From the NCBI GenBank assembly GCA_963846655.1, contig CAWJWT010000002.1, positions 519,376 to 583,375 on the forward strand: a DNA stretch of 64,000 bases, written 5' to 3'. This DNA comes from an uncultured beta proteobacterium (GTDB lineage: Bacteria; Pseudomonadota; Gammaproteobacteria; Burkholderiales; JACQAP01). A model generated the notes under the pieces. It did not search any database. It saw only the letters and a list, made by a program, of their open reading frames with translations, and was not told where the DNA came from. Position numbers and translations under genes: made by a program. Positions 16,253 to 39,554 of the stretch are shown here, one piece after another. Every line of letters begins with the position of its first letter. The stretch's first letter is position 1.

Positions 16253-16302
16253 CGACACGCGCGAATGGCGCCCGTCGCGCTGGCGCACCGAGGTAAACCC
16301 AC

Positions 16303-22101: not shown

Positions 22102-22221
22102 TTGCCCCTCAGCGCAAGGGATGGGCCCGCAGCTTGCCGCGGCGCGTGCATGCTTTTTGCACAAACACCCCCTGACCGGTGAGGTTTGCCGATTCTAGGT
22201 TTCGGAACCAAAGGGGACAAC

Positions 22222-22698
22222 ATGACCAAAGTAGCGACATTGCAGCGGGATATCCTGGTGTTCGGGCTCCTGTTGCTGGCCGGTGCGTGGATGAGCTCGC
22301 AGGTGTTCGCGGGCGAAGCCGGGCGCATCAAGGTGTCCAAGGGCGACGTGCAGATCGAGCGCAACGGCAAATGGCAGCCGGCGCCGGTCGGGGCGATCAT
22401 CGAGCCCCAGGATACGGTAAAAACCGGCGCGGACGGCTCGGTAGGCATCACCTTCCATGACAACAGTCTGTTGTCGGCGGGACCGAACAGCGAACTGGTC
22501 ATCGAGCGTTTCGTGTTTGACAGCACGACCCACCAGGGACAATTCGATACGCGCCTGAAAAAAGGCACGCTTGCTGTCGTCTCCGGAAAAATCGTCAAGC
22601 AGACGCCGGAAGCCATGCGCATCAAAACGCCGGCAGCGATCATGGGCGTTCGCGGAACTGAATTCGTCGTCAAAGTGGACGAACCCGCCGCGCGTTGA
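22222..22698 (+). CDS. Exported stand-alone FecR-domain protein
   Basis: Signal peptide; D.VKTGADGSVGITFHDNS..SAGPNSEL, GTLAVVSGKI, KTPAAIMGVRGTEF. Confidence 0.88.
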   Translation: MTKVATLQRDILVFGLLLLAGAWMSSQVFAGEAGRIKVSKGDVQIERNGKWQPAPVGAIIEPQDTVKTGADGSVGITFHDNSLLSAGPNSELVIERFVFDSTTHQGQFDTRLKKGTLAVVSGKIVKQTPEAMRIKTPAAIMGVRGTEFVVKVDEPAAR

Positions 22699-23387
22699 TG
22701 CAACAAGCAGTAGTTACACTGGCCATCATCGTGACGGTGATGGCCGGTTGCATGCAGCCTGGCGCGCGATCCGAAAATTCCGGTGCGGCCGGCTGGACAC
22801 CTTCCACGGCGCCACTTGAACCCGAAGCCCTGCGTCCCGCGGCTGCCCCCTCTCGCAACGATCTGGTCGTCCTGCTGCCCAAACCGGACGGCGCCATTGG
22901 CGGCATCGTCGTCAGGGCGGGCGGCCGCGAGACCGTGTTGAATCGCGCGTATGCCGGCCTGCACATCGGCGGGCCTGGCGTCATGCAACCCGTTGTCTAT
23001 GACGCTCGGCGTACGCAGGAAGAATTCGCCGGCGTCGTATCGGCCTTGCCCGGCCGCCCGGCGACGTTCCTGCTGTATTTTCTCGAAGGCAGGGACGCAC
23101 TGACACCGGAATCCGAGCGCGAAGTGGAGCGTATCGTCGCCGCGATCGCCGCCAGGCCCCATCCGGAAATACTGGTCATCGGCCACACCGACGCGCTTGG
23201 CCACGCGCAGTTCAACGATCAATTGTCGCGGCAACGAGCGCAGCGCGTGCGCGACGACCTGGTCGTCCGCGGCATCCCGCTTCACTGTATCGAAGTATCC
23301 GGCCGCGGCAAGCGCGAACCGTTGATCAGAACGCCGGACGGCGCGCCCGAACCCCGCAACCGGCGTGTGGAGATCAACGTTCGCTGA
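22698..23387 (+). CDS. OmpA-family peptidoglycan-binding lipoprotein
   Basis: Lipobox MAGC, GHTD..G...N..LS.QRA, GRG.REP, RNRRVEI; TGATG coupling to the FecR gene. Confidence 0.9.
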   Translation: MQQAVVTLAIIVTVMAGCMQPGARSENSGAAGWTPSTAPLEPEALRPAAAPSRNDLVVLLPKPDGAIGGIVVRAGGRETVLNRAYAGLHIGGPGVMQPVVYDARRTQEEFAGVVSALPGRPATFLLYFLEGRDALTPESEREVERIVAAIAARPHPEILVIGHTDALGHAQFNDQLSRQRAQRVRDDLVVRGIPLHCIEVSGRGKREPLIRTPDGAPEPRNRRVEINVR

Positions 23388-23431
23388 TCGCCGCGTCACG
23401 TCTCTCGTCGGGTAAGGCGCATCGGCGGCGC

Positions 23432-25600: not shown

Positions 25601-26556
25601 ACCTCTATTTCCATGCCATCGAACGCGGCGCTTACCCGAATCGGGTGATCAGCACGCGTAAGCTGCTCGAAGCGGATGGTTTCGTTGAGCACGGACTGGA
25701 TGCGTTCGTCGTCGAACGCGGGCTCGTGATGAAACATGCACAAATGCTTCACGCGCGCCAGCTGCGCCAGTTCCACGCCGACGATATTGCTCGAGTGACC
25801 CCAGTCTTCCTTGACGGACACCGCGTCGAGCAGCGAGTACATGGCATCGAAAATCACCAGGTCGGCGTTTCGGAAAAACTCGACGAACCCTTCGGTCTCG
25901 GCCGGGTCTTCGAGCTTATGTTCGGAATCGGTCGAGTAAACGATTGTCTTGCCGTCGCGTTCGAGACGATAACCATAGGAGTCCCCGGTATGGCGTTGCA
26001 GTTTGGGGGTCACGCGGAAGCCGGCGATGTCGGTGCTCCTGCCGACTTCGAGCTTGACGAATTCGATCCGCGCAGCGAGTCGGGTAAAATCGACGGGAAA
26101 ACAGGGCGCCGATTGCTGCAGGCGAAAGGCCTGCTCGAGCACGTCGTGGCAACCAAAAATCCGGATGCGTGCCTCTGGCGCGTAAGCCGGGCCGAAGAAA
26201 GGAAAGCCCATGATGTGGTCCCAATGCACATGGGACATCAGAACGTTCACCAGGACCGGTCCGGAGTGCGAGGTAGCCATGATGCGGCTGCCAAAGGCAC
26301 GGGCGCCAGTGCCCATGTCGCAAGCCAGATATTCCGCGGGCTGCGCGGTTTCGAACTCCACGCACGGGGAGTGGCCGCCGTAGGTCTGCGAAACTGAAAA
26401 TTGCAGATCGTTATCAATAAAGGACTGCAGCTTGTCCGCTGAATCCACGCCGCGGGCGATTGCCAGGGACAGGGCAGCCTCGATCTTGCGGCGGATATCG
26501 GCCGAGGTCAGCGCGACCGGGATGGAGCCGCGCGTCCCCCAGAAGCGTACCAGCAT
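25597..26556 (-). CDS. MBL-fold metallo-hydrolase (RNase Z/phosphodiesterase-like)
   Basis: FWGTRGSIP, GGHSPC, DMGTG, SHVHWDHIMGFPFF, STDSE, WGHSS, FHHEP. Confidence 0.9.
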   Translation of the reverse strand: MLVRFWGTRGSIPVALTSADIRRKIEAALSLAIARGVDSADKLQSFIDNDLQFSVSQTYGGHSPCVEFETAQPAEYLACDMGTGARAFGSRIMATSHSGPVLVNVLMSHVHWDHIMGFPFFGPAYAPEARIRIFGCHDVLEQAFRLQQSAPCFPVDFTRLAARIEFVKLEVGRSTDIAGFRVTPKLQRHTGDSYGYRLERDGKTIVYSTDSEHKLEDPAETEGFVEFFRNADLVIFDAMYSLLDAVSVKEDWGHSSNIVGVELAQLARVKHLCMFHHEPAFDDERIQSVLNETIRFEQLTRADHPIRVSAAFDGMEIEV

Positions 26557-26566
26557 CTTTTTGGCT

Positions 26567-26938
26567 CTAGGTCTGCAAGGAATCAAGAGCAGTCGGTGAC
26601 AGGCGCGCGATGGCTGCCTGCACGGTATCGAATGTCTCGAATACCAGCGTGAAGCGGCTGATCTCGAAGATCTCTTTGACTACCGGTTGCATGGCCGCGA
26701 CAACGATCGTGCCGCCTTGTGCCTTGGTCTGTTTTTCCGCGAGCATGAAACAGCGCAATCCGGCGCTGCTGATATAGTCCACATCCCCCAGGTCGAGCAC
26801 GATGCTTTCACCGTCCCTGGTGCACCGATCGATGAAGGGAGCCATGCTGTTGCGAAAATCTTCGCTGTTGGCATGATCGATCCGGCCCGCGGGCGACAAC
26901 ACGAGAATATCGCTGTGGGTCTTGTTGTTGATATTCAT
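26567..26938 (-). CDS. STAS-domain anti-anti-sigma factor (RsbV/SpoIIAA-like)
   Basis: GRID, LDLGDVDYISSAGLR with the phospho-acceptor Ser, IFEISRF. Confidence 0.92.
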   Translation of the reverse strand: MNINNKTHSDILVLSPAGRIDHANSEDFRNSMAPFIDRCTRDGESIVLDLGDVDYISSAGLRCFMLAEKQTKAQGGTIVVAAMQPVVKEIFEISRFTLVFETFDTVQAAIARLSPTALDSLQT

Positions 26939-27110
26939 ATTCACCGGTCCGCGCGCGAGCGCGGACCGGCAATGAACCGGTGGCGACTTCGCGCAAATGA
27001 AAAACGCTGGTTGCCGACCCTCGACGCTTCCCTGAAGGCGCCGACGCCGCAACCAGGCGACAGGTTACATGAATCCTGAAACCGCGGGGCAGCGGGTCAC
27101 GGCAGCCCGG

Positions 27111-28325
27111 TCAGGCGAAGACCGGGAAGGTGTCGAACTTGCCGGAAAGCAACTGGTCAGTGTTGCGATAGCCAAGCCAGCCGTCGATTACGGTGGCATA
27201 GACGCGACGGAAATCCGTGGTATAGACCAGATTATCCCCTTCATCGAGTTCGGTCAGGCTCGGGGCGCGGCCGTAGTGGCCCCCCTTGACCTGTTTGCCG
27301 ACGATGTACATGTGATTAGCCGTGCCGTGATCGGTGCCAAGGCTGGTGTTCTCGGGGACGCGCCGGCCAAATTCCGAGAATACGAGCACCGTCACGTCGT
27401 CGGCACGCCCGATGCGTTCCATGTCTTGCATGAATCCGGCGACCGCATCGGAAACATAGGTCAACAGGCGCTGGTGCAAGTCCGGTTGTTGCACGTGTGT
27501 GTCGAAAGCATTGTGGCGGTACGACGTGTAGTACAGGCGGGTGGGCATGCCGGCGGCGATGAGCGAAGCGACTTTGGGGAGCTGTACGGGCACGATGCCG
27601 TAATCAACCGGCGTCTTGTAGTCTTGCCACGCATCGCGCACCAGCTGTGACGCCTCGCGCGCGCTTCTCGCCACCTCGAGCAGATAGCGCTTCGAGGCAT
27701 TGGCGCCAGGATCCTGGTCCGGGGCACGATCCAGCAGCGGACGCTCCTGGTAGAGGCCCTTGCGCCCGAATTTCTCGGGATCGTCGAACACGACCGGCAC
27801 ATGCTCGCGCGCTCGCACAGCCAGGGATTGCACTTCATCGATATTGACGAGGAAATTCGGTGTCGACTGCTTGTCTATCGCATCGGCGACGCGCCCGACC
27901 CAACCGAACTCCTCGCCTCGGTTGGGCGCGCCGGTGTGCCAGTACGCCATGGACGTGAAATGGGAGAACGAGGGTTGCGCATAGCCGCAACCGTGCACGA
28001 TGGCCATCCGGCCATCCTTGTACAGACGCTCGAACCCCGCCATGCCGGCGTTGAAGCCATAGCGCTCATCGATCTTGCGAACTTTCTCGGGCCGGATGCC
28101 GATCACGGGCCGATGCCGGTAATAAGCATCATCGGCGTATGGAACCAGCGTGTTGAGCCCGTCGTTTCCACCGGACAATTCGAGCACAACCAGAATGCGT
28201 TTGGAGGCGGCCACATCCGCGGCCCCCGCACGCGAAAAGACCATCGGCATTCCGGCTGCGCCGATACCGCACAAGGCGGCGCGCAGGATTTCACGTCGGG
28301 TCCACGGTTTCAGTGTCGTAGTCAT
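27111..28325 (-). CDS. DUF1501 protein with Tat-like signal
   Basis: TRREILR signal, LSGGNDGLNTLVPY, SHF.SM..W, FDTH, SEFGRR..EN...GTDHG, DFRRVY. Confidence 0.92.
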   Translation of the reverse strand: MTTTLKPWTRREILRAALCGIGAAGMPMVFSRAGAADVAASKRILVVLELSGGNDGLNTLVPYADDAYYRHRPVIGIRPEKVRKIDERYGFNAGMAGFERLYKDGRMAIVHGCGYAQPSFSHFTSMAYWHTGAPNRGEEFGWVGRVADAIDKQSTPNFLVNIDEVQSLAVRAREHVPVVFDDPEKFGRKGLYQERPLLDRAPDQDPGANASKRYLLEVARSAREASQLVRDAWQDYKTPVDYGIVPVQLPKVASLIAAGMPTRLYYTSYRHNAFDTHVQQPDLHQRLLTYVSDAVAGFMQDMERIGRADDVTVLVFSEFGRRVPENTSLGTDHGTANHMYIVGKQVKGGHYGRAPSLTELDEGDNLVYTTDFRRVYATVIDGWLGYRNTDQLLSGKFDTFPVFA

Positions 28326-28358
28326 AATTTTTTCGTCTTCGAGGCAACAGTAAAGGGT

Positions 28359-30161
28359 CTATCCGAGCTGGTATTCGGGCAGGGACAGAATCACATGCAA
28401 GGTGCTGCGCAGCGGCTCTTCGAGGTAGCTTGCTGCCGCCGCCAGATCCGCAGTTCCCAACTCGCTTTCCAGGAACTTCGCAATCCGCGTGCGCGTAGCC
28501 TCGTCGACGGGCACCGATACGAAGCGCGCCAGCAGGTAATCGGCAGCTTCCCGCGCGGACTTGCATCCTGCGCGCCCCACCATTCCAGACAGGTCCATCT
28601 GGGCCGTTGCGCGCGGGATGGGTTTGACCTTCTGCAGGGCCATCTGCCAGCCGCGGAAACTGGCGAGCCGTGTGTTGAAATCCTCGTCGCGGTCCGCCTG
28701 CATCGACATCGACGTCATTTCCTTGGCGTCAGGCTTGGTGGCCGTGGTCACGTCCAGGCCCAACGCAAGTTTTTCATTAACCACGCCGATTTTGTAATCG
28801 GCCAGCGGATAGCGATCGGACGGCAGGAAATTGATATCGGGGTACAAGGTGTCGTATACGAAATTCCCGCGCGCCAGCAGCAGGCCTGGCGTGATCCAGC
28901 TTTTGCCGTTGGGCCAGCCTGCGACCGTGGGCGGGAAAAGCAATTTCTGGCCCAGCATTTCGGTGACGTCATTGAAATCGGGTACACCGGGTAATTCCTT
29001 GAGACCCATCTTCTTGTAGGTCGAAATCACCAACTCCACTGGTGATTTGATGTGTGTTGCCACGGCGGCCTCGCTGTAGAAGTCGCGCGACAGGAACACG
29101 GTTTCAAGCAGCGGAGCGATCTCGTAATTCGATTCGCGCAGTTTCGCGCCTAGCTTCGCGCGCAGCGCCGGCGGAAGGTCCTGGCGCACGAAAAACCCGT
29201 AGAGCCTGCCGGCAACGTATTCGCCCGTGACGGGTTTCGTCAGGATCAGGTCGATAATGTCGACGCCGTTGAAATGGCCTTGCTTGCCAAAAAAAGTCTT
29301 GGCCGAGTTGTCATGCTTTTCCGGCGTGACAACGAAATCCAGATTGACGAAATTCCAGCCGGTGAAGGCGCGCGCGGCTTCGCGGATGTCGGTCTCGCTG
29401 TAATTGCCCACGCCCATGGAAAACATTTCCATGATTTCGCGCGCGAAATTTTCGTTGGGCGCGCCCTTGATATTGACCCCTGCGTCGAGGAACGCAAGCA
29501 TCGCGGGATCCTGCGCGACCTTGATCAGCAAATCGCGGAAATTGCCCGTTCCGTGGGCGCGGAACAGTTCGTTCTGCCTGAGCATCTTGCGGTAGTCGCG
29601 CACTTTCTCTTCGCTGGTCGCGAAATGGCCGTGCCAGAACAACGCCATCTTTTCTTCGAGCGGCCGATTCGTGGCAAGCATGCGATTGGCCCACCAGTAG
29701 GCGACGCGATTCGTTTCGAGCCGGCTCGCTCGCAACCAGTAGAAGAATTTGTTCGCCACCGGCTGCAAGCGCCGATTGCCTGCCGGCTTTACCTTGACCC
29801 CCATGGATTCGCCGGTATCCCGGGCGAGGTCCGTGGCAGCGGGTCGCGAGGCCGGAAAAGGCTCCAGTCCCGAATCGTGTACCCCGGACTCATCGAAAGC
29901 GGGCAGATTGTTGGCGATCTTCTTGTGATAGACCAGCCGTCGCACGGCTGCCTGCGGGGTCATCGCCGCGAGTTGCGCGATTTCTTCGGGCGTGCCGCCA
30001 AAGCCGGCGCGCTCCAGCAGGTGCGCGGCGCGCTGTGGATTCCAGTCTTTGGGCCCGATGGGGGTCAAATCCCCGGCCCAATCGTCGGCGGCGGAAATGG
30101 TGAAGGGGGTCAGGAACAGGGCCAGCAGAATGCAGGTGCCCGTCTTTTGGCGTAGGGTCAT
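28359..30161 (-). CDS. DUF1800 protein
   Basis: AAHLLERAGFG, LEEKMALFWHGHFAT, DPAML.FLD, PNENFAREIMEMF, PPTVAGW, PEYQL. Confidence 0.92.
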   Translation of the reverse strand: MTLRQKTGTCILLALFLTPFTISAADDWAGDLTPIGPKDWNPQRAAHLLERAGFGGTPEEIAQLAAMTPQAAVRRLVYHKKIANNLPAFDESGVHDSGLEPFPASRPAATDLARDTGESMGVKVKPAGNRRLQPVANKFFYWLRASRLETNRVAYWWANRMLATNRPLEEKMALFWHGHFATSEEKVRDYRKMLRQNELFRAHGTGNFRDLLIKVAQDPAMLAFLDAGVNIKGAPNENFAREIMEMFSMGVGNYSETDIREAARAFTGWNFVNLDFVVTPEKHDNSAKTFFGKQGHFNGVDIIDLILTKPVTGEYVAGRLYGFFVRQDLPPALRAKLGAKLRESNYEIAPLLETVFLSRDFYSEAAVATHIKSPVELVISTYKKMGLKELPGVPDFNDVTEMLGQKLLFPPTVAGWPNGKSWITPGLLLARGNFVYDTLYPDINFLPSDRYPLADYKIGVVNEKLALGLDVTTATKPDAKEMTSMSMQADRDEDFNTRLASFRGWQMALQKVKPIPRATAQMDLSGMVGRAGCKSAREAADYLLARFVSVPVDEATRTRIAKFLESELGTADLAAAASYLEEPLRSTLHVILSLPEYQLG

Positions 30162-30293
30162 TGTCAGTCCTTCTTCAGTGCGGGTGTTGTCAGGCCGGTG
30201 GTGCCGGAAGCGGGCTCGCTATTGTCGAGGAATTGCGCCGGTCGGGTCCTGCGCAAAAGCTGCAATTGGCGTTCATGATTTTCATGACGAAGC

Positions 30294-30323
30294 TTGACGG
30301 GGCCGGCCGTCCGGGAGTAGTTT
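30294..30323 (+). promoter_or_regulatory. Putative sigma70 promoter of the Ni-transporter gene
   Basis: TTGACG-N18-TAGTTT. Confidence 0.35.
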
Positions 30324-30369
30324 TCCCGGCCTTCAAAGTCAAAACGATTATCGGTCGTTTCTCCTCGCC

Positions 30370-31155
30370 TTGGGTACCACTTTATCGCTGTTGGCGGTCG
30401 GATTCTTCCTCGGTATGCGTCACGCGACCGATGCAGATCATGTGATCGCCATCTCCACGATCGTCACCCGGCAGCGTTCGATGCGCAGCGCCGCACTGAT
30501 CGGTGCGCTGTGGGGCGTCGGGCACACCTTGACCGTGATGCTCGTGGGCGGCGCAATCATCCTGTTCACCATCACGATCCCGCCGCGTCTGGGCCTGGCG
30601 ATGGAATTCGCGGTGGGCGTGATGCTTGTGCTCCTCGGATTTTTCAGCTTGACCGGTATGAACCAGTGGATTCGCGACAACCTGGCGCCCGGATCGTCCA
30701 TGCATGGTCACACCCATGCGCATGGGGATTATGCCCATAGCCATTTGCACGGTCACGGGATCACCGGACATGGCCACAACGAAGAGCAGACGCCCCAGGC
30801 GTGGCTCGACCGCAAACTCGGGAGCGTAGGGGTTTACCAATTGGCGCGCCCCGTAGTGGTCGGCATCGTACATGGCCTTGCCGGCTCGGCCGCGGTCGCT
30901 TTGCTGGTGCTGGCGGCCATCGATGACGCATGGTGGGGCATGGTGTACTTGTTCCTGTTCGGCGTTGGCACGGTGGCCGGCATGATGATGATTACGGTTG
31001 CCATTGCCGCACCGTTTGCCTATTCGACCGGACGCTATCCACGCTTCAACGCCTACCTGCGCGTTGCCTCGGGATTGCTCTCGCTCGGTTTCGGGTTGTT
31101 CCTGATGTTCTATATCGGCTACGTGGACGGGCTGTTCAGCGAACCATCGGGATGA
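30370..31155 (+). CDS. NiCoT/UreH-like Ni/Co transporter
   Basis: GMRHATDADHVIAI (NiCoT signature), WGVGH, His-rich loop HGHTHAHGDYAHSHLHGH, GIVHGLAGSAA. Confidence 0.88.
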   Translation: MGTTLSLLAVGFFLGMRHATDADHVIAISTIVTRQRSMRSAALIGALWGVGHTLTVMLVGGAIILFTITIPPRLGLAMEFAVGVMLVLLGFFSLTGMNQWIRDNLAPGSSMHGHTHAHGDYAHSHLHGHGITGHGHNEEQTPQAWLDRKLGSVGVYQLARPVVVGIVHGLAGSAAVALLVLAAIDDAWWGMVYLFLFGVGTVAGMMMITVAIAAPFAYSTGRYPRFNAYLRVASGLLSLGFGLFLMFYIGYVDGLFSEPSG

Positions 31156-31206
31156 CATCGCGATAAATGAGTCACTCCCGCGCACCTGGTTTAGTGCGTT
31201 GCAGCA

Positions 31207-31235
31207 TTGACGTTGGTCGGCTCACCCATTACATT
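31207..31235 (+). promoter_or_regulatory. Putative sigma70 promoter
   Basis: TTGACG-N17-TACATT just upstream of 31244. Confidence 0.45.
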
Positions 31236-31243
31236 TTTAGACT

Positions 31244-31837
31244 ATGGTTTCAGAGGCTGGCAGGTCGCATCCGTCCCGGGCAGGCGGGTTAAAGGGATTT
31301 GGACTGGGTGCGGTCGTAATGGGCTTGGTTGCCGTGGTGATTTTCGCGGTGGTTCGGGAAAATGCCGGCCCCAGGAATCAACCTGAGGAGGCGAATGCGC
31401 ATTTCGCGGCGGGCCTGGGCCATCACGACGTGCCGCCGCTCCAGCCCGAAGAAGAGGCTTATGCAGCAGCGCTCTGGCCGATACACAGTGAAGTAAAACT
31501 GGCAGCAGTTCGCATGATCTTCGCCGGTCTTGCCTATAAGACGGAAAACAAGGACGCCAGGGCACTGAAGAACAAGGTTCAACCGTTGACCCGCACCTTC
31601 AAGAGCGCAGCCTCTCGCGCGAAAGCGATCAAACCGCCGCCTTCGCTCCAGGCCGCGCACCGCAGCTATCTGGAAGCGCTGGACTTGTACGCTGGTGCGA
31701 CGGTTGAAATGATCAAGGTGGCCGACGATGGCCGCGAAACACACCTGATCGACGCGCAGGCGCGCAGCGAGCGGGCATCGACCGCAATCATCATGCTGAG
31801 CGATACGCTCTGGCCGGGGGAGTACAAACCGAACTAG
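31244..31837 (+). CDS. Hypothetical membrane-anchored helical protein
   Basis: Single N-terminal TM, GHHD, predicted helical bundle, C-terminal LWPGEYKPN. Confidence 0.7.
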   Translation: MVSEAGRSHPSRAGGLKGFGLGAVVMGLVAVVIFAVVRENAGPRNQPEEANAHFAAGLGHHDVPPLQPEEEAYAAALWPIHSEVKLAAVRMIFAGLAYKTENKDARALKNKVQPLTRTFKSAASRAKAIKPPPSLQAAHRSYLEALDLYAGATVEMIKVADDGRETHLIDAQARSERASTAIIMLSDTLWPGEYKPN

Positions 31838-31921
31838 TTGAAACTGCCGTGTTGATTGCGCGCGGCGTGCAAGACGAAAAACGTTGCTGGGATGTACCTT
31901 AACAGTCACTAGGGGGAAAAA

Positions 31922-32926
31922 ATGAAGAAGAATCTGCAACACGCTTTGATCGCCGCGGGCGTTGCTGCCGTGGCGACGCTGGCCGCGCCGGTGGCACAGG
32001 CGCAGCAATATTCGGTCTGGCTGGTCGAGAACAGCCGGTTCATGAATGTGCCTTACGGGGCGTTCATGCCCGATCGCGCATTCGTTCCGGGCAGCACCAG
32101 CAAGTTCAACAACATCAACCTGATCGACCTGCCGGTTAATGTCGGTGTCATCAAGGGAATGGTCAATGGCAAACAGGAAGTCATTCTCGCGGACGCCGGC
32201 TGGAAACAGCAGGATTACCTGAAGATGACCGGCAGCGGACATTATTCGGCCGTTGTCGATCAGCTCAAGTTGCTGGGCATTTCCGCCGATCAGGTCACCA
32301 AGATTGTCGTGGGTCACGGCCACTGGGATCACGCGGGCAGCCTGAGCGATTTCCCTAACGCGGTGCTGTACATCCAGAAGAAGGAACTGGAAGGCATCGA
32401 ATGGGCGCTCAACTACCCGAACCCGCGCATCAGCGCACACAACCTGTCGCCCGGCGGCTGCTATCGCACACCGGCTTGCGGCTATCCGCCCAAGACGCTC
32501 GATGAAGTGTATGGCAAGGTACTGGCCGGTAAAGCGGTGATCGTGGACGGCGAGTATGACGTGTTGCCGGGTGTCAAGATTCACCCGGCATTCCATTCGC
32601 ACACCGCCGGCGCGCAACTGCTGGAAGTCAGAACCGGCACGTCGGTTGGAACACTGGTCTTCGGCAGCGACACTTATTCGTCCTGGCAGGGCATTCGCGA
32701 CTGGATGATCGCCAATCCGCAAAGCAGTGCTGATACGGCGCAACAGTTTCTCGCCTACGAAAAGTGCTACAAGCTGACCGGCGGCTATAACAACTGCATT
32801 TCCGGTCACGAGCCGACCTCCTACACCAAGGATTACCCGATTACGGCAAATTCCTGGGTAGGCGGCAACGGCGCGCGGTTGGCGGAAATTACGCTGGCTC
32901 CGGGCGAGAGCTCCAAGAAGAAGTAA
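31922..32926 (+). CDS. Exported MBL-fold hydrolase (AHL-lactonase-like family)
   Basis: Signal peptide AQA|Q, DAG, HGHWDHAG (HxHxDH), HSHTAG, GSD, SGHE; strong RBS. Confidence 0.88.
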   Translation: MKKNLQHALIAAGVAAVATLAAPVAQAQQYSVWLVENSRFMNVPYGAFMPDRAFVPGSTSKFNNINLIDLPVNVGVIKGMVNGKQEVILADAGWKQQDYLKMTGSGHYSAVVDQLKLLGISADQVTKIVVGHGHWDHAGSLSDFPNAVLYIQKKELEGIEWALNYPNPRISAHNLSPGGCYRTPACGYPPKTLDEVYGKVLAGKAVIVDGEYDVLPGVKIHPAFHSHTAGAQLLEVRTGTSVGTLVFGSDTYSSWQGIRDWMIANPQSSADTAQQFLAYEKCYKLTGGYNNCISGHEPTSYTKDYPITANSWVGGNGARLAEITLAPGESSKKK

Positions 32927-32967
32927 TTCCGGATCGACGCAGATCCTCTGATTTTGGCAAGTCGCAA

Positions 32968-33004
32968 GCGAGGAGTCGGCGGTCCCGACTCCTCGCATTT
33001 TTTT
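32968..33004 (+). terminator. Intra-cluster terminator/stabilising hairpin after the MBL gene
   Basis: GCGAGGAGTCGG-CGGTC-CCGACTCCTCGC-A-T7. Confidence 0.8.
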
Positions 33005-33019
33005 GCTCGCGCCTGACCC

Positions 33020-34186
33020 GTGTTCAATCGCGCATGGTGTTTCGCAGCATGTGTCGCTGCATTGCTGCTTGGCGGCAGGGCGGCCGAAGCGCATGACCCC
33101 AGTGCTTATGGCGGCTTGTTCCGTTCCCGTGACTTTGGCCAGACCTGGCTGAATGCCGACGCGGGTCTGTTCCTCGGCGGAGCCGTTGCCCTCGCCATCG
33201 ATCCAACTGATCCCAATCATCTGCTGCTGGGCACGACGACCAATCTACTGGTCTCCGCCAACGGAGGGCGTACGTGGAATAAAGAGGCGCCGGCAAAGCT
33301 CTCCGGGGCCGTCTTCGCAGTCAGCTTTTTGCCGGACGGGCGATCTGCGCTCTGTGTGACACCTGCCGGCGTGTTTCGCTCCGAGAATGGGGCTTGGCTG
33401 CAAGCGGATGCGCCCGCCGAAGCGGCGCCGGCCCGCGCCATCGTGCCGGGTGTCGAAGCAAAGCAAATTTATTTGATCGGACGCCGCGATTTGTTTCGCA
33501 GCGACGACGGCGGACACCGGTGGAGCCGGGTCGAGCACGCAATGGAGGAACAGCCGGAGTTTACCGAACTGCTGGTGGCTGGCGATGGCCGGGAAACGCT
33601 CTACGCGATTGTGGGCGGGCGCGTGATGGCGAGCGCCGATCGCGGCCACCGGTGGCAGCGTCGCGACGCGGGACTGCCGCAGAAGGCGCTGGAAGCGCTG
33701 ACGCTGGATCGGGCGGGGCCGGCGCGTTTATGGGTCGCCGGGGGCGATCAACTCTATCTGAGCGAAGACGCCGGGGCGCACTGGAAGGCGGTGGGTGCCC
33801 CGCTGCCGGAGCCTGGCACCAGTGTGCGCGGCATTGCCGCCGACGCGGAGCGAAAGACGATCGTGCTGATGACTCACCGCGGCTTGTTGCGCAGCACCGA
33901 CGGCGCCCGAACCTGGAACATGCTCGAAGGCAATCTGCCCGTGCATCTCGAGGGCCGACCTTTGCTGCGCGACGCCTCGAGTGCCAATACCTTGTATGCG
34001 GGCTTTGCGCTGATGCCGTATGGAGAACTCTGGCGCATGGCGGTTGAGGGGGGCAATCTGCTCAATCAGCTCGATCTGACGAGCCTCGCCGGGGGGGCCG
34101 CCTTCCTGCTGTTGCTGGTCATTGCGGGCATCGTCCTGGCGCGCCGGCTGGCCCGCACCAGCCTTTCCAACGACACGAGTAAATGA
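33020..34186 (+). CDS. BNR/Asp-box beta-propeller protein (YCF48-like) with signal peptide and C-terminal TM
   Basis: Repeated S-x-D-x-G-x-x-W boxes (SRDFGQTW, SANGGRTW, SDDGGHRW, SADRGHRW, SEDAGAHW, STDGARTW). Confidence 0.85.
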   Translation: MFNRAWCFAACVAALLLGGRAAEAHDPSAYGGLFRSRDFGQTWLNADAGLFLGGAVALAIDPTDPNHLLLGTTTNLLVSANGGRTWNKEAPAKLSGAVFAVSFLPDGRSALCVTPAGVFRSENGAWLQADAPAEAAPARAIVPGVEAKQIYLIGRRDLFRSDDGGHRWSRVEHAMEEQPEFTELLVAGDGRETLYAIVGGRVMASADRGHRWQRRDAGLPQKALEALTLDRAGPARLWVAGGDQLYLSEDAGAHWKAVGAPLPEPGTSVRGIAADAERKTIVLMTHRGLLRSTDGARTWNMLEGNLPVHLEGRPLLRDASSANTLYAGFALMPYGELWRMAVEGGNLLNQLDLTSLAGGAAFLLLLVIAGIVLARRLARTSLSNDTSK

Positions 34187-35196
34187 ATAGCAAAATGAAT
34201 TCCGACCCGCGCGCGCGATCAACGAATAGCCGGCGATCCCGGTGGTATGCGGCAGTGGCCCTCAGCGTGATAGCAGGGCTCCTCGCAGCCTGGTATGTGG
34301 CCTCGCCGGCAAAACTCAGCGTCGATGAATATCCGATGCTCGACGCCAGGGACATACCGGCCGTGATCGCAGCCGGTGCAGACGGCAGTGTCTGGTTCAC
34401 CATCGATTACGCTGCGGCGATCGGACGCGTACACGAAGGTAAAATACAGCGCATCGCCAAACCTACCGTCAGTCTGGTGCCCGTTGGCCTCGCCGTCGCG
34501 GCCGACGGTGCCGCGTGGTATGCGGATTCCAATGCGCGCGAGATCGCCCGCATCACGCCGGAGGGAAAAATTTCTGCGGTCGCGCTGGGCATGCCGCTCG
34601 CGCGTCTGGGCCAAGTGGCTATCGCACCGGACGGGGGTGTCTGGTTCGCCGAAGCCACGGCATACAGCATCAGCCGGGTCAAGGATGGCAAGCTCGAGCG
34701 CCACGTCATCGACTCCGTTCGCGGCGGCCCATACGGCGTGGCCGTGGCGTCCGACGGGGTGGTGTGGGCAACCTTGCAAAGCGCCAATCAGTTGCTGCGC
34801 ATTGCGCTGGATGGAAAGATGACAACCTACGACATTCCCACGCGCGGCAGCAGCCCGACTGACATCGAAGTCGACGGCAAGGGCGCGGTATGGTTCACGC
34901 AGTTTCGCGGCAACAAAATCGGGCGATTTGCGCAGGGACGGTTTGACGAATGGCCGGTGGGCGACGATAACGCGGGCATCACCGGACTTGGCGTTGCCGG
35001 GGACGGCGCAGTGTGGTTCGGATTGTTGCGCAAAGGCAGCCTGGGGCGCTTGCGGGACGGAAAACTGAAGGAATTCAAACTGCCGCGCGAGCGCGCCCGA
35101 CCTTACAGTGTTGCCGTCGATAACAAGGGCAATGTCTGGTATACGGACCTTAGCGGTTACGTAGGAATGTTAAAGGCAGACGACGCGAGACGATAG
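34183..35196 (+). CDS. Vgb (streptogramin lyase)-like beta-propeller protein with N-terminal TM anchor
   Basis: Repeats of the type (A/G)xDGxVWF...IxRI; ATGA overlap with the upstream gene. Confidence 0.82.
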   Translation: MNSKMNSDPRARSTNSRRSRWYAAVALSVIAGLLAAWYVASPAKLSVDEYPMLDARDIPAVIAAGADGSVWFTIDYAAAIGRVHEGKIQRIAKPTVSLVPVGLAVAADGAAWYADSNAREIARITPEGKISAVALGMPLARLGQVAIAPDGGVWFAEATAYSISRVKDGKLERHVIDSVRGGPYGVAVASDGVVWATLQSANQLLRIALDGKMTTYDIPTRGSSPTDIEVDGKGAVWFTQFRGNKIGRFAQGRFDEWPVGDDNAGITGLGVAGDGAVWFGLLRKGSLGRLRDGKLKEFKLPRERARPYSVAVDNKGNVWYTDLSGYVGMLKADDARR

Positions 35197-35241
35197 CGGG
35201 TCGTGCACGCGCGCGGCGAGCGCGGGGGCGTTTGTCGCCGT

Positions 35242-36135
35242 TCAGGCCAGCGAGCGAAGCGTGCTCCATGCGCGTAGCGAGAGAATCACACCGACGATCA
35301 CGATCAACAACGACGTGCCCACCTGCAAACGCATGGCCCACGGACCCGCCAGCCAGTCCAGAATGCGCTGCCCGACCTTTGCGGCAACGACGCCAACGAT
35401 GACCAGCGTCATGGCGAAACCCACGCTGAACACCACCACCGTACCCAATCCAAGCATGACTTTGCCTTGCGCCAGCGCATTGAGCAAAATGGCGAGGGCG
35501 GCGGGGTCGGGCAACAGTCCGCCGGCAATGCCGAGGCCGATCAATATCCAGAGGCTCGGCCGATTGGTGGTGGCAAGCTTCAGATCGTGCGTGTGTTTGA
35601 ATCCCCAGCCATGGCTGTGGTAACCGGCCTCATCGTGTTGATGCTGCGCATGCTGGCCAGGGCCGTGCGAATGACCGTGCGCGTGCGCAGCATCGTGGAC
35701 ATGGTCGCGGGCAGGTTGATGTGCAAGGGCAAGCGCGCGATCCTGGCCAGGCAATCGAAAGTGCATCGGCGCCGAGGCCTGTGCAGGGACCGCACCGGCA
35801 GGAGCAATACCCTGCAATTGCAGAATCAACTCGCGCTGTGTCCATAATGTCCACAAGCCGATGGCGATCACCAATACTCCGGTAATCAACGCCAGCCAGC
35901 CTTCAATGCGCAGCGTGCCCATGCCCGGCATGCCCAGAGACGCAAGGATGCCGACCAGCACGATGCCGCTGGTATGCGACAGCGTCACGAAAATGCCGAG
36001 AATGACCGCGTCGACGGGACGTCCACGGGCGCCCACAATGTATGCAGCGGCAATGGTCTTGCCGTGTCCGGGCGTAGCGGCATGCACTGCGCCGATCCAG
36101 AACGCGGACGCAAGATAAATCACGGCATCGATCAT
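35242..36135 (-). CDS. RcnA-like Ni/Co transporter with His-rich loop
   Basis: GAVHAATPGHGKT, VTLSHTSG, long His-rich loop, GGLLPDPAA, FSVGFA. Confidence 0.87.
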   Translation of the reverse strand: MIDAVIYLASAFWIGAVHAATPGHGKTIAAAYIVGARGRPVDAVILGIFVTLSHTSGIVLVGILASLGMPGMGTLRIEGWLALITGVLVIAIGLWTLWTQRELILQLQGIAPAGAVPAQASAPMHFRLPGQDRALALAHQPARDHVHDAAHAHGHSHGPGQHAQHQHDEAGYHSHGWGFKHTHDLKLATTNRPSLWILIGLGIAGGLLPDPAALAILLNALAQGKVMLGLGTVVVFSVGFAMTLVIVGVVAAKVGQRILDWLAGPWAMRLQVGTSLLIVIVGVILSLRAWSTLRSLA

Positions 36136-36180
36136 GGGGAGATGAAACGGATGAATCGCTTTGTTCGAAGGGCCGGGGCG

Positions 36181-36209
36181 AGAATAGGTGTGGGGCTCCG
36201 CGCTGTCAA
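36181..36209 (-). promoter_or_regulatory. Putative sigma70 promoter of the rcnA-like gene
   Basis: Minus strand TTGACA-N17-TATTCT. Confidence 0.6.
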
Positions 36210-36321
36210 GCCGGCCAGGCAGCGGTAGCAACCGGTTTACGCTACAGTCCCGAATCAGTCGCGCTGTGAACGGCGGCACGGCGCTGTTGCACGCTCACGC
36301 CCTGCCATGAGGAAACCATAG

Positions 36322-37767
36322 ATGCGCCGCATGTTGATGCTCTTGTCGCTGCTTGCCGCGTGCAACGGTGCTGCTGCCGATACGCGCAAGGGCTACGAAG
36401 CCTATAGCGCCGGCAATTACCAGAGCGCGGTCGAAGAATTTCGCGCGTCCGCAGAACAGGGCGATGCGCTGGCGATGTTCTATCTGGGCGAGAGTTATTT
36501 CAACGGCCGCGGCGTGGTGCAGGATTTCGCCGAGGGCATCAAGTGGTACCGGCAGGCGGCGGCGAAAGGGCAGGTTGAAGCGCAAGAAACCCTGGGCGGG
36601 CTTTATTTTTTCGGCAAGGGCGCCGCGCAGGACTACGCGGAAGCGGCGAAGTGGTACGCGATGGCTGCCGCCCAGGGCAAGGCTTATGCACAGTACCTGC
36701 TCGGCTACATGTACGACCTTGGCAAAGGCGTCGCCCAGGATCAGGCGCAGGCAGCCCAGTGGTTCCGCAAGGCCGCGGAGCAAGGCAATGCCGATGCGCA
36801 GGAAAGTCTGGCTTCGTTATTGTTTTTCGGCCGCGGCGTTCCACAGGATTATGCCGAAGCCGCGAAGTGGTACGCCAAAGTCGCCGAACAGGGTCGCGCT
36901 TATCCTCAATACCTGATGGGGTGGATGTACGACCAGGGCCGCGGCGTGCAGCAGGATTTCGCCAAAGCTGCAGAGTGGTATCGCAAAGCTGCTGAACAAA
37001 ATGATGCGCGCGCGCAGGCCAGCCTCGGCTTTCTCTACTATGCAGGCAAAGGGGTTGCGCAGGACCAGGCGACGGCCGTGAAGTGGTTGCACAACGCGGC
37101 GGCGCAGGATGAAACTTCGGCTTACGCGGGTCTGGCGTGGGCCTACTATCAAGGCAAGGGCGCCGAGCAGGACTATGCGCAGGCGGTGAAGTGGTTCCGT
37201 AAGGCCGCGCAGGCAGGCGACGCGCAATCGGCGTATACGCTGGGTTATCTGTTGGAAGACGGCAAAGGTGTCGCGGCGGATGGGGCTGAAGCGGCCAGGT
37301 GGTATGAGAAGGCTGCCGAAGCAGGCCTGTCGGAAGCCATGGAAAGCCTGGGCGCCTTGTATTTTTTTGGCAAAGGCGTAACGCAGGATTATGCCGCAGC
37401 GGCCAATTGGTATAAGCGTCCTGCCGAGAAAGGCAGCGCCTATGCGCAATATCTCCTCGGCTACTTGTACGAAGAAGGCAAAGGCGTTGCCGCCGATTCC
37501 GCGCAAGCAATGAAATGGTATGGCCTTGCGGCGGAACAAGGCGAGCCGCGCGCGCAAAGCCACCTGGGCTGGATGCTCTGGGAAGGCAAGGGCGCAGCGA
37601 AAGATGCGGTGAAAGCACACATGTGGAGCAACCTCGCCGCATCGCAACTCAGCGGTGAAGAAGCGGAGCGTGTGCGCAAGGTGCGCGATTTCATCGCCTC
37701 GAGCCTTACGCCCGATCAACTGGCGCAAGCGCAGGAATTGGCCCGCAATTGGCGACCCCGCAAATAA
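36322..37767 (+). CDS. Exported Sel1-like repeat protein (about 11 repeats)
   Basis: 36-aa repeats AQ..LG..Y..G.GV.QD...A..WY.KAAEQG, with a signal peptide. Confidence 0.95.
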   Translation: MRRMLMLLSLLAACNGAAADTRKGYEAYSAGNYQSAVEEFRASAEQGDALAMFYLGESYFNGRGVVQDFAEGIKWYRQAAAKGQVEAQETLGGLYFFGKGAAQDYAEAAKWYAMAAAQGKAYAQYLLGYMYDLGKGVAQDQAQAAQWFRKAAEQGNADAQESLASLLFFGRGVPQDYAEAAKWYAKVAEQGRAYPQYLMGWMYDQGRGVQQDFAKAAEWYRKAAEQNDARAQASLGFLYYAGKGVAQDQATAVKWLHNAAAQDETSAYAGLAWAYYQGKGAEQDYAQAVKWFRKAAQAGDAQSAYTLGYLLEDGKGVAADGAEAARWYEKAAEAGLSEAMESLGALYFFGKGVTQDYAAAANWYKRPAEKGSAYAQYLLGYLYEEGKGVAADSAQAMKWYGLAAEQGEPRAQSHLGWMLWEGKGAAKDAVKAHMWSNLAASQLSGEEAERVRKVRDFIASSLTPDQLAQAQELARNWRPRK

Positions 37768-37862
37768 ATGACTTTGGTGTCACGGCACTGCTAAGCAGCG
37801 GCGGCCGGCGCGCGCGTCAGGCGTTACCCACTGCATGGCGGCGTCAGTTTCTGTTACAAAAT

Positions 37863-39041
37863 TTACTTTACACGATATTTCTTGAGCACTTTGGCATCCA
37901 GGTCCATGCCCAGGCCAGGTCGATCGGACAACGTGATATTGCCTTTCCTGTCCACGAGCAAGGGATCCGTTACCAGTTCATCCATGAGGGCATGAGCCGG
38001 AAATACGGTTTCGGCCATGGAGCCGTTGCGCACCGCGCCCAGCAGGTGCACCGCTGCCGCCACGGCCACGGCGGAGCCGTGGATGTGCGGTGCGATGGGC
38101 AGATTTGCGGCCTGTGCCATGTGCGCGATCTTCAATGTTTCTGTAATGCCGCCAGCCCAGGCCACATCGGGCTGCACGAAATGCACCGCGCGCGCAGCAA
38201 TATAGTCATTGAAATCGACGATGCCATAGCTGCAGGTTTCGTACCCCGCTACGGCAATGCCAACTTTCGCGGCCACTTCGGCGCTACCGCGCAAGTCGTC
38301 CGGTGAAACGGGCTCCTCATACCAATAAATGTCATGGCGTTCCATCGCGCGGCCCATGCGCACCGCGGTAGGCACATCCCACGCGCCATTCGCATCCACC
38401 ATGAGTTTGACGGCGGGACCCACTGCCGCTCGCACTGCGGCAACGCGTTTCAAGTCCTGTTCCAGCGTAACTTCGCATATGCCGGCATTGTCCATCACGC
38501 GCAGCGGTGAAAGCTCGATCCCGGCATTGCGGCCGACTTTCATTTTGACCGCGCGAAATCCATGTTTGACATAAGCTTCCATCTCCCGCGACAGTTCCTT
38601 GATACCCTTGCCTCGTGAATAGAATCCGCCCGTTGCATAGGCAGGCACGCGCTGGCGGTAACCGCCGAGCAATCGCCACAACGGCATGCCCGCCATCTTG
38701 CCGCGCAAATCCCAAAGCGCTATGTCGATGCCGCTGATAGCCGCGATGACGATGCCGCCCCGCGCATGTTTGTAGGCGCGCCGGTGCATCATCTCCCAGA
38801 GGTACTCGATGTTGCGCGGGTCCTGACCGATCAGGTAGTTGCGCAATTCATTTTCGATGACTTGTGAAGTCGATGCCATCGGCCCGCCGAAATGCGCGGC
38901 TTCGCCCAATCCGACAAGGCCCTGATCTGTTTCGACTTCGACGAGCAGCGCCGGCTTTGTCGCCATGGTGTAGTTGGCGTCGTAGACGGGTTGCGGGAGC
39001 CTCACTTCGACAGCGAGCGTGCGAACGTCTGTAATGCGCAT
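37863..39041 (-). CDS. Mandelate racemase/muconate-lactonizing enzyme family (enolase superfamily)
   Basis: ISGIDIALWDLRGK, KMKVG, MVDAN, YEEP, GYE, QPD...GG. Confidence 0.92.
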   Translation of the reverse strand: MRITDVRTLAVEVRLPQPVYDANYTMATKPALLVEVETDQGLVGLGEAAHFGGPMASTSQVIENELRNYLIGQDPRNIEYLWEMMHRRAYKHARGGIVIAAISGIDIALWDLRGKMAGMPLWRLLGGYRQRVPAYATGGFYSRGKGIKELSREMEAYVKHGFRAVKMKVGRNAGIELSPLRVMDNAGICEVTLEQDLKRVAAVRAAVGPAVKLMVDANGAWDVPTAVRMGRAMERHDIYWYEEPVSPDDLRGSAEVAAKVGIAVAGYETCSYGIVDFNDYIAARAVHFVQPDVAWAGGITETLKIAHMAQAANLPIAPHIHGSAVAVAAAVHLLGAVRNGSMAETVFPAHALMDELVTDPLLVDRKGNITLSDRPGLGMDLDAKVLKKYRVK

Positions 39042-39164
39042 GGCTTAAACCTTTTTTGAATGCTTGTGTGGAATATTTTATCGCGGCAATCGCGCTGCTG
39101 AAAAAATAAGCAGCCCTAACGGGAACATCAGTTGTAATACTGAGTCGCGCAGATTGCCAGAGCG

Positions 39165-39199
39165 CAATCCACAAGGTTATCCACAGAATTTGTGGATAT
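39165..39199. promoter_or_regulatory. DnaA-box triplet in DARS-like arrangement
   Basis: CAATCCACA-agg-TTATCCACA-gaatt-TGTGGATAT: two tandem boxes plus one inverted box. Confidence 0.75.
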
Positions 39200-39554
39200 T
39201 AATTTTTCCGAAAGTTGTTTGCGATTCACCGTCCAACCACGCATTCTTGTCGGGGTTGAGCGACAGTATGCACCGGGTGCAGTGTTGCACCGATCTGACC
39301 GCGCGCACACGAGCGCCTTTAGATATGATGCGCGACGTTAGCGCTGCGCCATTAGCGACGATTCAGAGCCGCTGGCGGCAATGGGTGCGCTTATTTGCGC
39401 CGCATAATGCAACACGCAGGAACGCTCGGGCGTTATCACCAGGGTAGTCGTTTGTCCCGCAAGTGGATGCTAACTCGTGCGGGGGTGTGGACTGCGTTGC
39501 GGTGAGCGGGCAACCCGGACATGCCGCTTCATCATTTGCCAGGGAGATTTTCCG

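Follow-up and report, generated by a model that had tools for sequence, protein, structure and literature searches.

NiCoT permeases, which have eight transmembrane (TM) segments, import metal, and RcnA is an exporter, with which RcnB is said to act in E. coli. Lactonase-type enzymes of the metallo-beta-lactamase (MBL) fold can work with Co, and metal sites that contain a histidine as first residue of the mature protein (His1) often prefer Cu. Franco Cairo et al. (2025, Nat Commun; PMC12537917) screened for proteins with a histidine straight after the signal peptide. According to the text of that article, "anglerase" domains that are fused to HupE/UreJ-2 permeases bind Cu (Kd ~70 nM) and Ni (Kd 220 nM), and DUF4198 binds Ni (Kd 18 nM) via His1 and a second histidine. 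It also describes HupE/UreJ-2 proteins as nickel permeases that import metal by experimental precedent, proposes that His1 domains capture metal ions and hand them to the permease, states that periplasmic His1 proteins can sequester metal, and lists bimetallic hydrolases among the neighbours of His1 proteins. Propellers, BNR, lactamase and NiCoT go unmentioned in this text, and the supplementary files may list more families. Here a locus of six genes, g1 to g6, is described, which lies in a stretch of 64,000 nucleotides (the window) of the uncultured Burkholderiales genome G000 (84.7% complete), and in which an exported MBL and three anchored proteins, one of them a candidate His1 protein, are encoded beside two Ni/Co-type permeases.

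A preliminary description of the window had proposed that these genes encode a Ni/Co-loaded hydrolase with its own metal supply and with membrane-anchored helpers. The list of open reading frames (ORFs) bore out six genes in a row at the positions that had been given (Table 1), and the motifs that had been pointed out, i.e., RHATDADH and a His-rich loop in g1 as well as HGHWDH, CYRTPAC and CYKLTGGYNNC in g3, were all present in the translations. The fold-level labels were backed by Pfam and NCBIfam matches; curated equivalog and subfamily cut-offs were reached by none of the six proteins. Hydropathy and counts of lysine and arginine (K/R) placed g2, g3, g4 and g5 on the periplasmic side, and g2, g4 and g5 are predicted to have one TM anchor each with a K/R-rich cytoplasmic side, so that their domains would be periplasmic. 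It was found that the cluster is a genuine, widespread, undescribed and metal-linked envelope module. Its gene content, its conservation, the modular co-inheritance, the adjacency to permeases of three Ni/Co-type families, the His1 of g4 and the intact metal site of the MBL were all observed. The claim that the cluster is a conserved functional unit of an undescribed kind was upheld, because its proteins bear generic names in the databases and literature searches retrieved no paper on the cluster, which for one broader query was judged by the listed titles.

A full-length orthologue of g3 (E<=1e-144) was present in 21 of 24 other genomes of the same genus and in 1 of 16 genomes of other families of the order, and at E<=1e-30 none was detected in 400 genomes that were sampled evenly across the class. 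A scan of 185,579 species genomes yielded 191 relatives of g3, and 80 of these with 64-97% identity were kept, 18 from the own genus and 62 from outside; the locus counts below refer to these 80 of 191. Carriers are Burkholderiales metagenome-assembled genomes (MAGs), Bradyrhizobium spp., Skermanella aerolata and Vineibacter terrae, and furthermore MAGs labelled Stellaceae, Geminicoccaceae or Rhodospirillales and two MAGs labelled Rokuibacteriota. The cluster is abundant in soil metagenomes; a word-indexed search revealed 1166 MBL homologues, and the best 120 were all at least 68% identical to g3. Within the genus the core of g2 to g5 was found in 18 of 18 loci with full synteny, flanks included, which by itself says little. 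Outside the genus the six genes are present, but the flank genes DUF1501, DUF1800, Sel1 and MR_MLE had no counterparts of comparable identity and were mostly absent. The MBL was accompanied by g2, g4 or g5 in 55 of the 62 non-genus loci; in five loci it stood alone, and two loci were too short. A permease adjoined the core in 48 of the 55 loci, four loci had none despite long flanks and three could not be judged, resulting in a fraction of 48/52. The association of the enzyme with helpers and transporters that had been claimed beforehand was therefore also found beyond the genus. Because the six-gene arrangement recurs in Burkholderiales, in the Alphaproteobacteria Bradyrhizobium, Skermanella and Vineibacter and in Rokuibacteriota-labelled MAGs with unrelated flanks, it is far beyond chance.

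The permeases were arranged in at least six different ways, including an inverted g1 and a downstream or divergent HupE/UreJ-2 gene. The most frequent combinations were g1 with a convergent g6 (24 loci) and g1 only (13 loci), followed by g6 only in a downstream position (four), g1 with a co-directional g6 (three) and HupE/UreJ-2 (two), and by one locus each with g1 and g6 both upstream and with g6 upstream; g6 was missing from 15 of 48 assessable non-genus loci. In the two HupE/UreJ-2 loci, one from Skermanella (L071) and one from a Geminicoccaceae MAG (L053), g1 and g6 are absent and a PF13795 protein (E 9e-45 and 5e-46) adjoins the core. In both proteins the leader ends in A and is followed by His, an anglerase-like architecture, and the L071 protein matched no PDB chain at E<=0.01 in a set that includes 9GCE. 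The occurrence of three Ni/Co-annotated permease families in shifting positions and orientations argues for selection on adjacency and not for frozen synteny, and at the level of genomes there is good support for the link between cluster and permeases. When the flank ORFs of five reference loci were compared with the 80 loci, the only additional conserved neighbour was a generic response-regulator/GGDEF gene, recognized by family likeness. A functional tie to the DUF1800/DUF1501 pair, to Sel1 or to MR_MLE was dropped, because these genes are syntenic within the genus only. In L071, and only in this locus, genes for a PQQ-dependent dehydrogenase and an SBP_bac_3 protein (L071:3790-6903) lie directly upstream of the core; a tie to lanthanides and XoxF was dropped, because L071 alone has a PQQ dehydrogenase beside the cluster.

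The locus is composed of two co-inherited modules, i.e., the core g2-g3-g4-g5 and the permease pair g1 and g6. In 31 six-gene loci the pairwise distances correlated with coefficients of 0.85-0.96 within g2-g5 and of 0.88 between g1 and g6, compared with 0.66-0.80 across the two sets. Two genomes of the genus, G020 and G016, illustrate this. Compared with G016, G020 resembles the window more closely in the flanks (DUF1800 85 versus 72%, MR_MLE 90 versus 85%) and in g1 (88 versus 81%), but less closely in g2 (50 versus 63%), g3 (70 versus 90%), g4 (50 versus 61%) and g5 (54 versus 68%). In addition, the own genus splits into two clades in the MBL tree. The discord between flanks and core together with the two MBL clades fits an exchange of the core as a cassette between a resident g1 and a resident g6. 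Each module also occurs without the other: in a genome from another family of the order (L115) g1 and g6 stand face to face beside a Sel1 gene with no core between them, and L121 contains the core without any permease.

The sharpest new lead is g4, a candidate metal-catching propeller with His1. It matches the Pfam families BNR, Sortilin-Vps10 and PSII_BNR, and it is composed of a signal peptide, a BNR propeller with seven Asp-boxes, one about every 43 residues, and a C-terminal TM anchor that is followed by four K/R. The cleavage site was read from the sequence as the end of a hydrophobic leader of the AXA type, which predicts H25 as the mature N-terminus of the window protein. In 60 of 61 distinct full-length orthologues the AXA-type site is directly followed by H(D/N); the sole exception is found in L093, a locus that is likewise devoid of permeases. 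A second histidine, H309 in the motif LPxHxE, is conserved in 59 of 61 orthologues. Since the first Asp-box starts 11 residues after His25, the N-terminal strand would close the propeller against the C-terminal segment with H309, and proximity of the two histidines is plausible. Ycf48/HCF136 and the F510_1955 BNR propellers share the seven Asp-box repeats and their spacing. However, g4 scored 42.4 bits against the Ycf48 equivalog (cut-off 326) and 106 bits against NCBIfam F510_1955 (cut-off 175), and it differs from Ycf48/HCF136 in His1, the second conserved His, the C-terminal TM anchor and the lack of a photosystem context. With the anglerases and DUF4198, g4 has in common a conserved His that is the first residue after the predicted cleavage site, a non-cytoplasmic domain, an inner-membrane tether beside a Ni/Co-type permease, and bimetallic hydrolases nearby. 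In anglerases the domain is a beta-sandwich fused to HupE/UreJ-2; g4, by contrast, is a BNR propeller encoded separately from the permease, carries a C-terminal TM helix of its own, usually stands beside a NiCoT-like permease and is accompanied by an MBL and two more anchored proteins, and its metal binding is a prediction.

Two observations bear on the possible recipient of the metal. The genome G444 (L117:5493-7616) contains a two-gene operon of a g1-type permease and a g4-type BNR propeller that has the same leader followed by HD, an LPPHLE motif and the C-terminal anchor, and MBL, g2 and g5 are all absent. This bare pair favours a hand-off of metal to the permease. A metagenome scan with the g4-like protein of L117 yielded BNR relatives at 20-38% identity only and no more g1-g4 pairs. 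On the other hand, His1 is kept in four core loci without a permease (L051, L059, L097, L121), which speaks for a function within the core, for instance in supplying the MBL with metal.

The enzyme g3 scored above the cut-off of Pfam Lactamase_B (34.8 versus 22.7 bits). In 36 sequences, including relatives with only 25-30% identity, H132, H134, D136, H137, D250 and H296 are invariant and H227 is conserved to at least 90%, and this ligand set (HxHxDH, H, D, H) makes up a full binuclear MBL site. The protein also has four invariant cysteines in two pairs and a Sec-type signal peptide that is devoid of a twin-arginine motif. The mean column identity was as high as 75% in 23 sequences from several classes. 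A search of 1.84 billion representatives of 50% identity clusters yielded 41 matches at E<=1e-30, mostly fragments. The best PDB match was 8x78 ("Glyoxylase, beta-lactamase superfamily II"; E 2e-21, residues 66-333), for which a literature search found no paper. With 8x78 and with the MBL-fold N-acyl homoserine lactone (AHL) lactonases AiiA, AttM, AhlS, AidB and YtnP, g3 shares the binuclear HxHxDH...H...D...H site. It differs from the lactonases by its signal peptide, by the two conserved Cys pairs, by a highly conserved N-terminal extension and by its position on a long separate stem, far under all equivalog cut-offs: the best score, with AiiA, was 39 bits versus 375, and the other four models gave 19-33 bits versus 360-475. 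In the tree g3 formed a tight clade that a stem of 1.54 changes per column separates from the outgroups, the nearest of which bear the name "N-acyl homoserine lactonase family". The long stem, the sequence conservation and a match to AiiA-type lactonases that is confined to the surroundings of the metal motif (E ~1e-7) characterize g3 as a distinct and strongly constrained offshoot of the lactonase-branch MBLs, as judged from sequence.

A paralogous MBL subclade lacks g2, g4 and g5 (L045, L056, L058, L061 and L090; L062 and L066 were too short to judge). Its members are 80-89% identical to each other, and their neighbours are an MgtC-family gene, an OmpR-type regulator and a hybrid dCache/PAS histidine kinase. 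According to the record labels, at least three of the MAGs with such a stand-alone MBL also contain the full cluster. In L045 a HupE/UreJ-2-like gene was noted about 5 kb from the MBL gene.

Based on these results, the following mode of action is proposed tentatively; it is a serious possibility, and it may well turn out otherwise. The cluster would be a module for the capture and use of metal. The core g2-g5 would act as an envelope unit, the catalytic part of which is the Sec-exported, disulfide-bonded, binuclear MBL, while g2, g4 and g5 would be single-pass inner-membrane proteins with periplasmic domains. The second module is the pair of NicO-superfamily permeases, NiCoT-like g1 and RcnA-like g6. 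Anglerase-like, g4 would use its free N-terminal His, probably together with His309, to capture a divalent transition metal beside the permease at the outer face of the inner membrane. The metal might be Ni or Co, judged by the company kept, and Cu is a live alternative. The propeller would pass the metal to the permease and/or to the MBL, and both may hold. The anchored proteins g2 and g5 would tether the soluble MBL to the membrane or bring its substrate to it, and the MBL would hydrolyse an ester- or lactone-type compound in the periplasm. An MBL that folds in the periplasm cannot be loaded with metal in the cytoplasm. That g4 binds metal, which metal this is, that the proteins form a physical complex and in which direction the metal is handed on are inferred.

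The core could also have no link to metal traffic at all. Then g2-g5 would be a periplasmic Zn hydrolase complex for an organic substrate, e.g., an AHL, another lactone or ester, or an envelope component, and the proximity of the permeases would stem from shared ancestry or a favoured insertion site. The names of the nearest relatives of g3 point in this direction, and the core moves as a cassette independently of g1 and g6, occurs in core-only loci and has stand-alone MBL paralogues. Moreover, no gene for an RcnR-/CsoR-type or other metalloregulator was detected in the scanned parts of the window. However, the adjacency survives rearrangement and spans classes, and in two further loci the permease comes from a third Ni/Co-type family, which is unrelated to the others. 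In addition, the nearly invariant His1 of g4 (60/61) would be hard to explain without metal in the light of the published His1 proteins (PMC12537917). Taken together, this explanation is regarded as unlikely, though less so than the three that follow.

Among the permeases, g1 is NiCoT-like by its signature motif only. The HX4DH signature, present in g1 as GMRHATDADHVIA, is at least 95% conserved in 52 orthologues, and the His-rich loop motif is likewise conserved in 52 sequences. RHAxDADH (HX4DH) in an early TM helix and GH(T/S) in the next helix, which are both found in g1, are NiCoT signatures, and the His-rich loop is a further likeness. The family scores were under the cut-offs (Pfam NicO 19.3 bits versus 27.7; TIGR00802, HoxN/HupN/NixA, 25.1 bits versus 333 with a match restricted to residues 11-70), about six TM segments were predicted from hydropathy in contrast to the eight of NiCoT, and a PDB search revealed no relative. 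Genes of the g1 type also occur alone. One example is L120:1104-2908 in genome G455, where a distant g1 homologue (38% identity) begins at the stop codon of a gene for a GTPase of the CobW/HypB/UreG family (COG0523-like), a further hint that the g1 permease family handles a transition metal. For g6 the Pfam NicO score was above the cut-off (37.2 versus 27.7 bits), and the protein aligned end-to-end with the RcnA model PRK10019 (positions 12-281 of 283), although its score of 121 bits was under the cut-off of 195. Like RcnA, g6 carries a His-rich loop. The loops of both permeases are predicted to be cytoplasmic, that of g1 by the positive-inside rule.

These features bear on the supply function that had been proposed for the permeases. 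In its strict form this would mean that g1 and/or g6 export Ni/Co to load an exported Ni/Co MBL and that g2, g4 and g5 are maturation factors. In favour of it, g6 is a full-length homologue of an exporter, the His-rich loops are predicted to be cytoplasmic as in exporters, a Sec-type MBL must gain its metal outside the cytoplasm, lactonase-type MBLs function with Co, and permeases adjoin the core in 48 of 52 loci. However, to our knowledge no Sec-exported Ni/Co hydrolase has been described, stand-alone MBL paralogues exist, and g6 is missing from 15 of the 48 assessable loci. NiCoT-like permeases, importers by precedent, are those whose genes most often run in the same direction as the core. 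In two loci their place is taken by HupE/UreJ-2, for which the text cited above gives import as experimental precedent (PMC12537917). Import would draw metal away from a Sec-exported enzyme, which weakens the supply idea, as does the g1-g6 pair without a core in L115. The original proposal of a Ni/Co-loaded hydrolase with its own supply is partly supported: the conserved cluster beside permeases is upheld, and the loading and supply are weakened by importer precedent, permease-less cores and stand-alone MBLs. Because the co-oriented permeases are importer-like and g6 is often missing, the strict version, in which exporters supply Ni/Co, is the weaker one, and it is considered improbable.

The presence of g6 would also be compatible with a role in efflux and tolerance, in which the periplasmic proteins modulate or buffer the export of Ni/Co by g6, comparable to RcnB. 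The RcnA-like gene is convergent and downstream in most loci (24+12). A buffering role would agree with the sequestration of metal that is described for periplasmic His1 proteins (PMC12537917). Nevertheless, the core is co-oriented with g1 and not with g6, about a third of the assessable loci have no g6, buffering needs no intact hydrolase site, and an RcnR-/CsoR-type regulator was not seen in the scanned parts of the window, so that such a role appears very unlikely.

The two remaining core proteins are anchored at their N-termini. The TM anchor of g2 is followed by a periplasmic domain of about 130 amino acids, in which E70, H81 and Y142 are invariant; the C-terminal tail, LWPGEYKP(N/H), is conserved as well. 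No Pfam family matched g2, all 504 homologues are labelled "hypothetical", in Atlas a homologue led to unnamed clusters only, and a PDB profile search gave chance-level helical matches only (E 0.097 and 0.25). The public gene call of g2 begins at an internal Met (P0358, 172 amino acids). The N-terminal TM anchor of g5 is preceded by five K/R. Like Vgb, the virginiamycin/streptogramin B lyase, g5 is a seven-bladed propeller of the Pfam family Vgb_lyase (229.5 bits versus a cut-off of 50, E 4.7e-68), and it matched the PDB entries 2qc5 and 2z2n with E-values of 1e-43 to 1e-52. The available text of PMC8916777 places the Mg and substrate site of Vgb in blades 6-7. The scores of g5 with the NCBIfam models Vgb(A) and Vgb(B) were 144-161 bits versus 600. 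Opposite H228, E268 and H270 of Vgb (numbering from the chain alignment), which are its catalytic residues, g5 has no His or Glu in any of three HMMER registers. In the first register Y308 faces the Vgb site and E268 and H270 have no counterpart; in the others T267/R306/Y308, or G265/T267, lie opposite the Vgb residues (the co-linear register was read by hand). Moreover, no invariant His was found among 22 g5 orthologues. Since the catalytic residues of Vgb are missing and an invariant His is lacking, g5 is unlikely to be a Vgb-type lyase. It further differs from Vgb in being TM-anchored and periplasmic.

The relationships of g3 and g5 would suit another possibility, according to which g2-g5 form a hitherto undescribed periplasmic machine, tethered to the inner membrane, by which soil Proteobacteria acquire Ni/Co. 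The MBL, presented by g2/g5 and perhaps aided by the propellers, would cleave ester- or lactone-type organic chelates and free the metal, g4 would act as an in-trans propeller anglerase and catch the ion with His1 and His309, the NiCoT-like permease or HupE/UreJ-2 would take it up, and g6 would bleed off the excess. The analogy is provided by periplasmic esterases that free iron from trilactone siderophores. Importer-type permeases are indeed co-oriented with the core, the minimal g1-g4 pair exists, the genome needs Ni for urease, and the MBL belongs to the lactonase branch just as g5 belongs to a family that opens cyclic depsipeptides. Against it stand the lack of the Vgb catalytic residues in g5, the existence of core-only loci, and the fact that neither a TonB-dependent receptor nor a chelate-biosynthesis gene is conserved nearby; furthermore, ester-ring metallophores for Ni or Co are not known to us. 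An acquisition machine is thus held to be distinctly unlikely, but if true, it would be the first enzyme-assisted uptake route for Ni/Co and would contain the first His1 metal site on a beta-propeller.

The non-coding sequences of the locus contain a few elements that may bear on its expression (Table 1). A hairpin with the appearance of a terminator separates g3 from g4, and a stem-loop within about 70 nt or less of the g3 stop codon was present in 23 of 23 folded sequences (L033-L103; folded without a shuffle control), with a T-run after the hairpin in the Burkholderiales examples. The number of terminator-like sites in the region was not above that of shuffled sequences. As a possible terminator or attenuator inside the cluster, the hairpin may set how much MBL is made relative to the propellers, and expression levels may thus differ between g1-g3 and g4-g5. 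The start of g5 overlaps the stop of g4 (ATGA), and such an overlap was found in 12 of 23 pairs with script-chosen starts. The gene g6 probably starts with the ATG at 36135, where the preliminary description had ended. The palindrome is conserved upstream of g1 in loci of the own genus, or is replaced by the variants TCATGATAATCATGA or TCATGATTATCATGA. With up to one mismatch it has 42 sites in the genome, compared with 0 for the reversed control, and a similar palindrome lies about 370 bp upstream of a gene for a TonB-dependent receptor. It resembles a Fur-family box, it may be a Fur-family operator, and it could serve either of the two divergent genes, DUF1800 or g1. Another site was noted on contig C10 upstream of a PqqB-like/radical-SAM gene pair.

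Table 1. Genes and non-coding elements of the locus, with positions in the window.
Feature	Position	Strand	Length	Description
Palindrome TCATGA-N3-TCATGA	30273-30287	.	15 bp	TCATGATTTTCATGA; between the divergent DUF1800 gene and g1
g1	30370-31155	+	261 aa	NiCoT-like permease (ORF list)
g2	31244-31837	+	197 aa	TM-anchored helical protein (ORF list)
g3	31922-32926	+	334 aa	Exported MBL (ORF list, Pfam)
Terminator-like hairpin	32968-33006	+		12-bp stem with 9 GC pairs, T-run; between g3 and g4
g4	33020-34186	+	388 aa	BNR propeller (ORF list, Pfam)
g5	34183-35196	+	337 aa	Vgb-like propeller (ORF list, Pfam)
g6	35242-36135 (gene); 35242-36279 (ORF)	-		RcnA-like (NicO) permease, convergent
Sigma-70-like promoter TTGACA-17-TATTCT	36181-36209	-		Upstream of g6, consensus match only

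Farther upstream in the window, a row of MoxR (AAA_3), DUF58 and VWA/GATase1-like genes ("Bat-like") was noticed at 14460-21596. In other Burkholderiales (L115, L116) a VWA/GATase1-like gene lies directly upstream of g1. A partner-switching-like gene set at 22065-27052, just upstream of the DUF1501/DUF1800 pair, encodes a STAS-domain protein, a CHASE2-SpoIIE phosphatase and a further MBL-fold (Lactamase_B_2) protein.

The metal context of the locus agreed with the statement that no urease or hydrogenase gene lies in the window: the urease matches of the genome are on other contigs or outside the window, and an NiFe hydrogenase was not found in the whole 84.7% complete genome. Apart from the urease, the genome contains further HupE/UreJ-type genes elsewhere. 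One of these (L124, contig C10:58000-73000 of G000) encodes a second HupE/UreJ-2 protein, in which a leader ending in GGAEA is followed by His. About 4 kb away there is an ORF for another exported, lactonase-like MBL with an apparent out-of-frame tail, and ABC-type genes lie in between. An Rfam search at a permissive threshold had 0 matches in the region 27000-39500, and hence revealed no NiCo or B12 riboswitch there.

Several results weigh against the proposed capture and use of metal by the cluster. Neither a regulator nor a riboswitch nor a Ni enzyme ties the locus to a particular metal. No permease lies near the core in four assessable loci and in L121, and the stand-alone MBL paralogues show that this type of enzyme can live without adjacent helpers. 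The g1-g4 pair of L117 is a single case. The hairpin between g3 and g4 suggests an unequal dosage of MBL and propeller, which fits a fixed 1:1 complex less well. Lastly, related loci are not independent trials.

The finding touches two questions that are open in bacterial metal biology, namely how proteins that fold outside the cytoplasm are supplied with the correct metal, and how secondary Ni/Co permeases locate their scarce substrate. The cluster is carried by culturable strains, i.e., Skermanella aerolata KACC 11604, Vineibacter terrae CC-CFT640 and several Bradyrhizobium, and therefore the hypotheses are directly testable. With an exported binuclear hydrolase, a candidate His1 propeller, two more anchored partners and interchangeable Ni/Co-type permeases in one place, it is a compact genetic system for both questions. 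If the capture of metal by g4 holds true, the anglerase idea would be extended to a new fold, to a split architecture that acts in trans, and to a new permease family.

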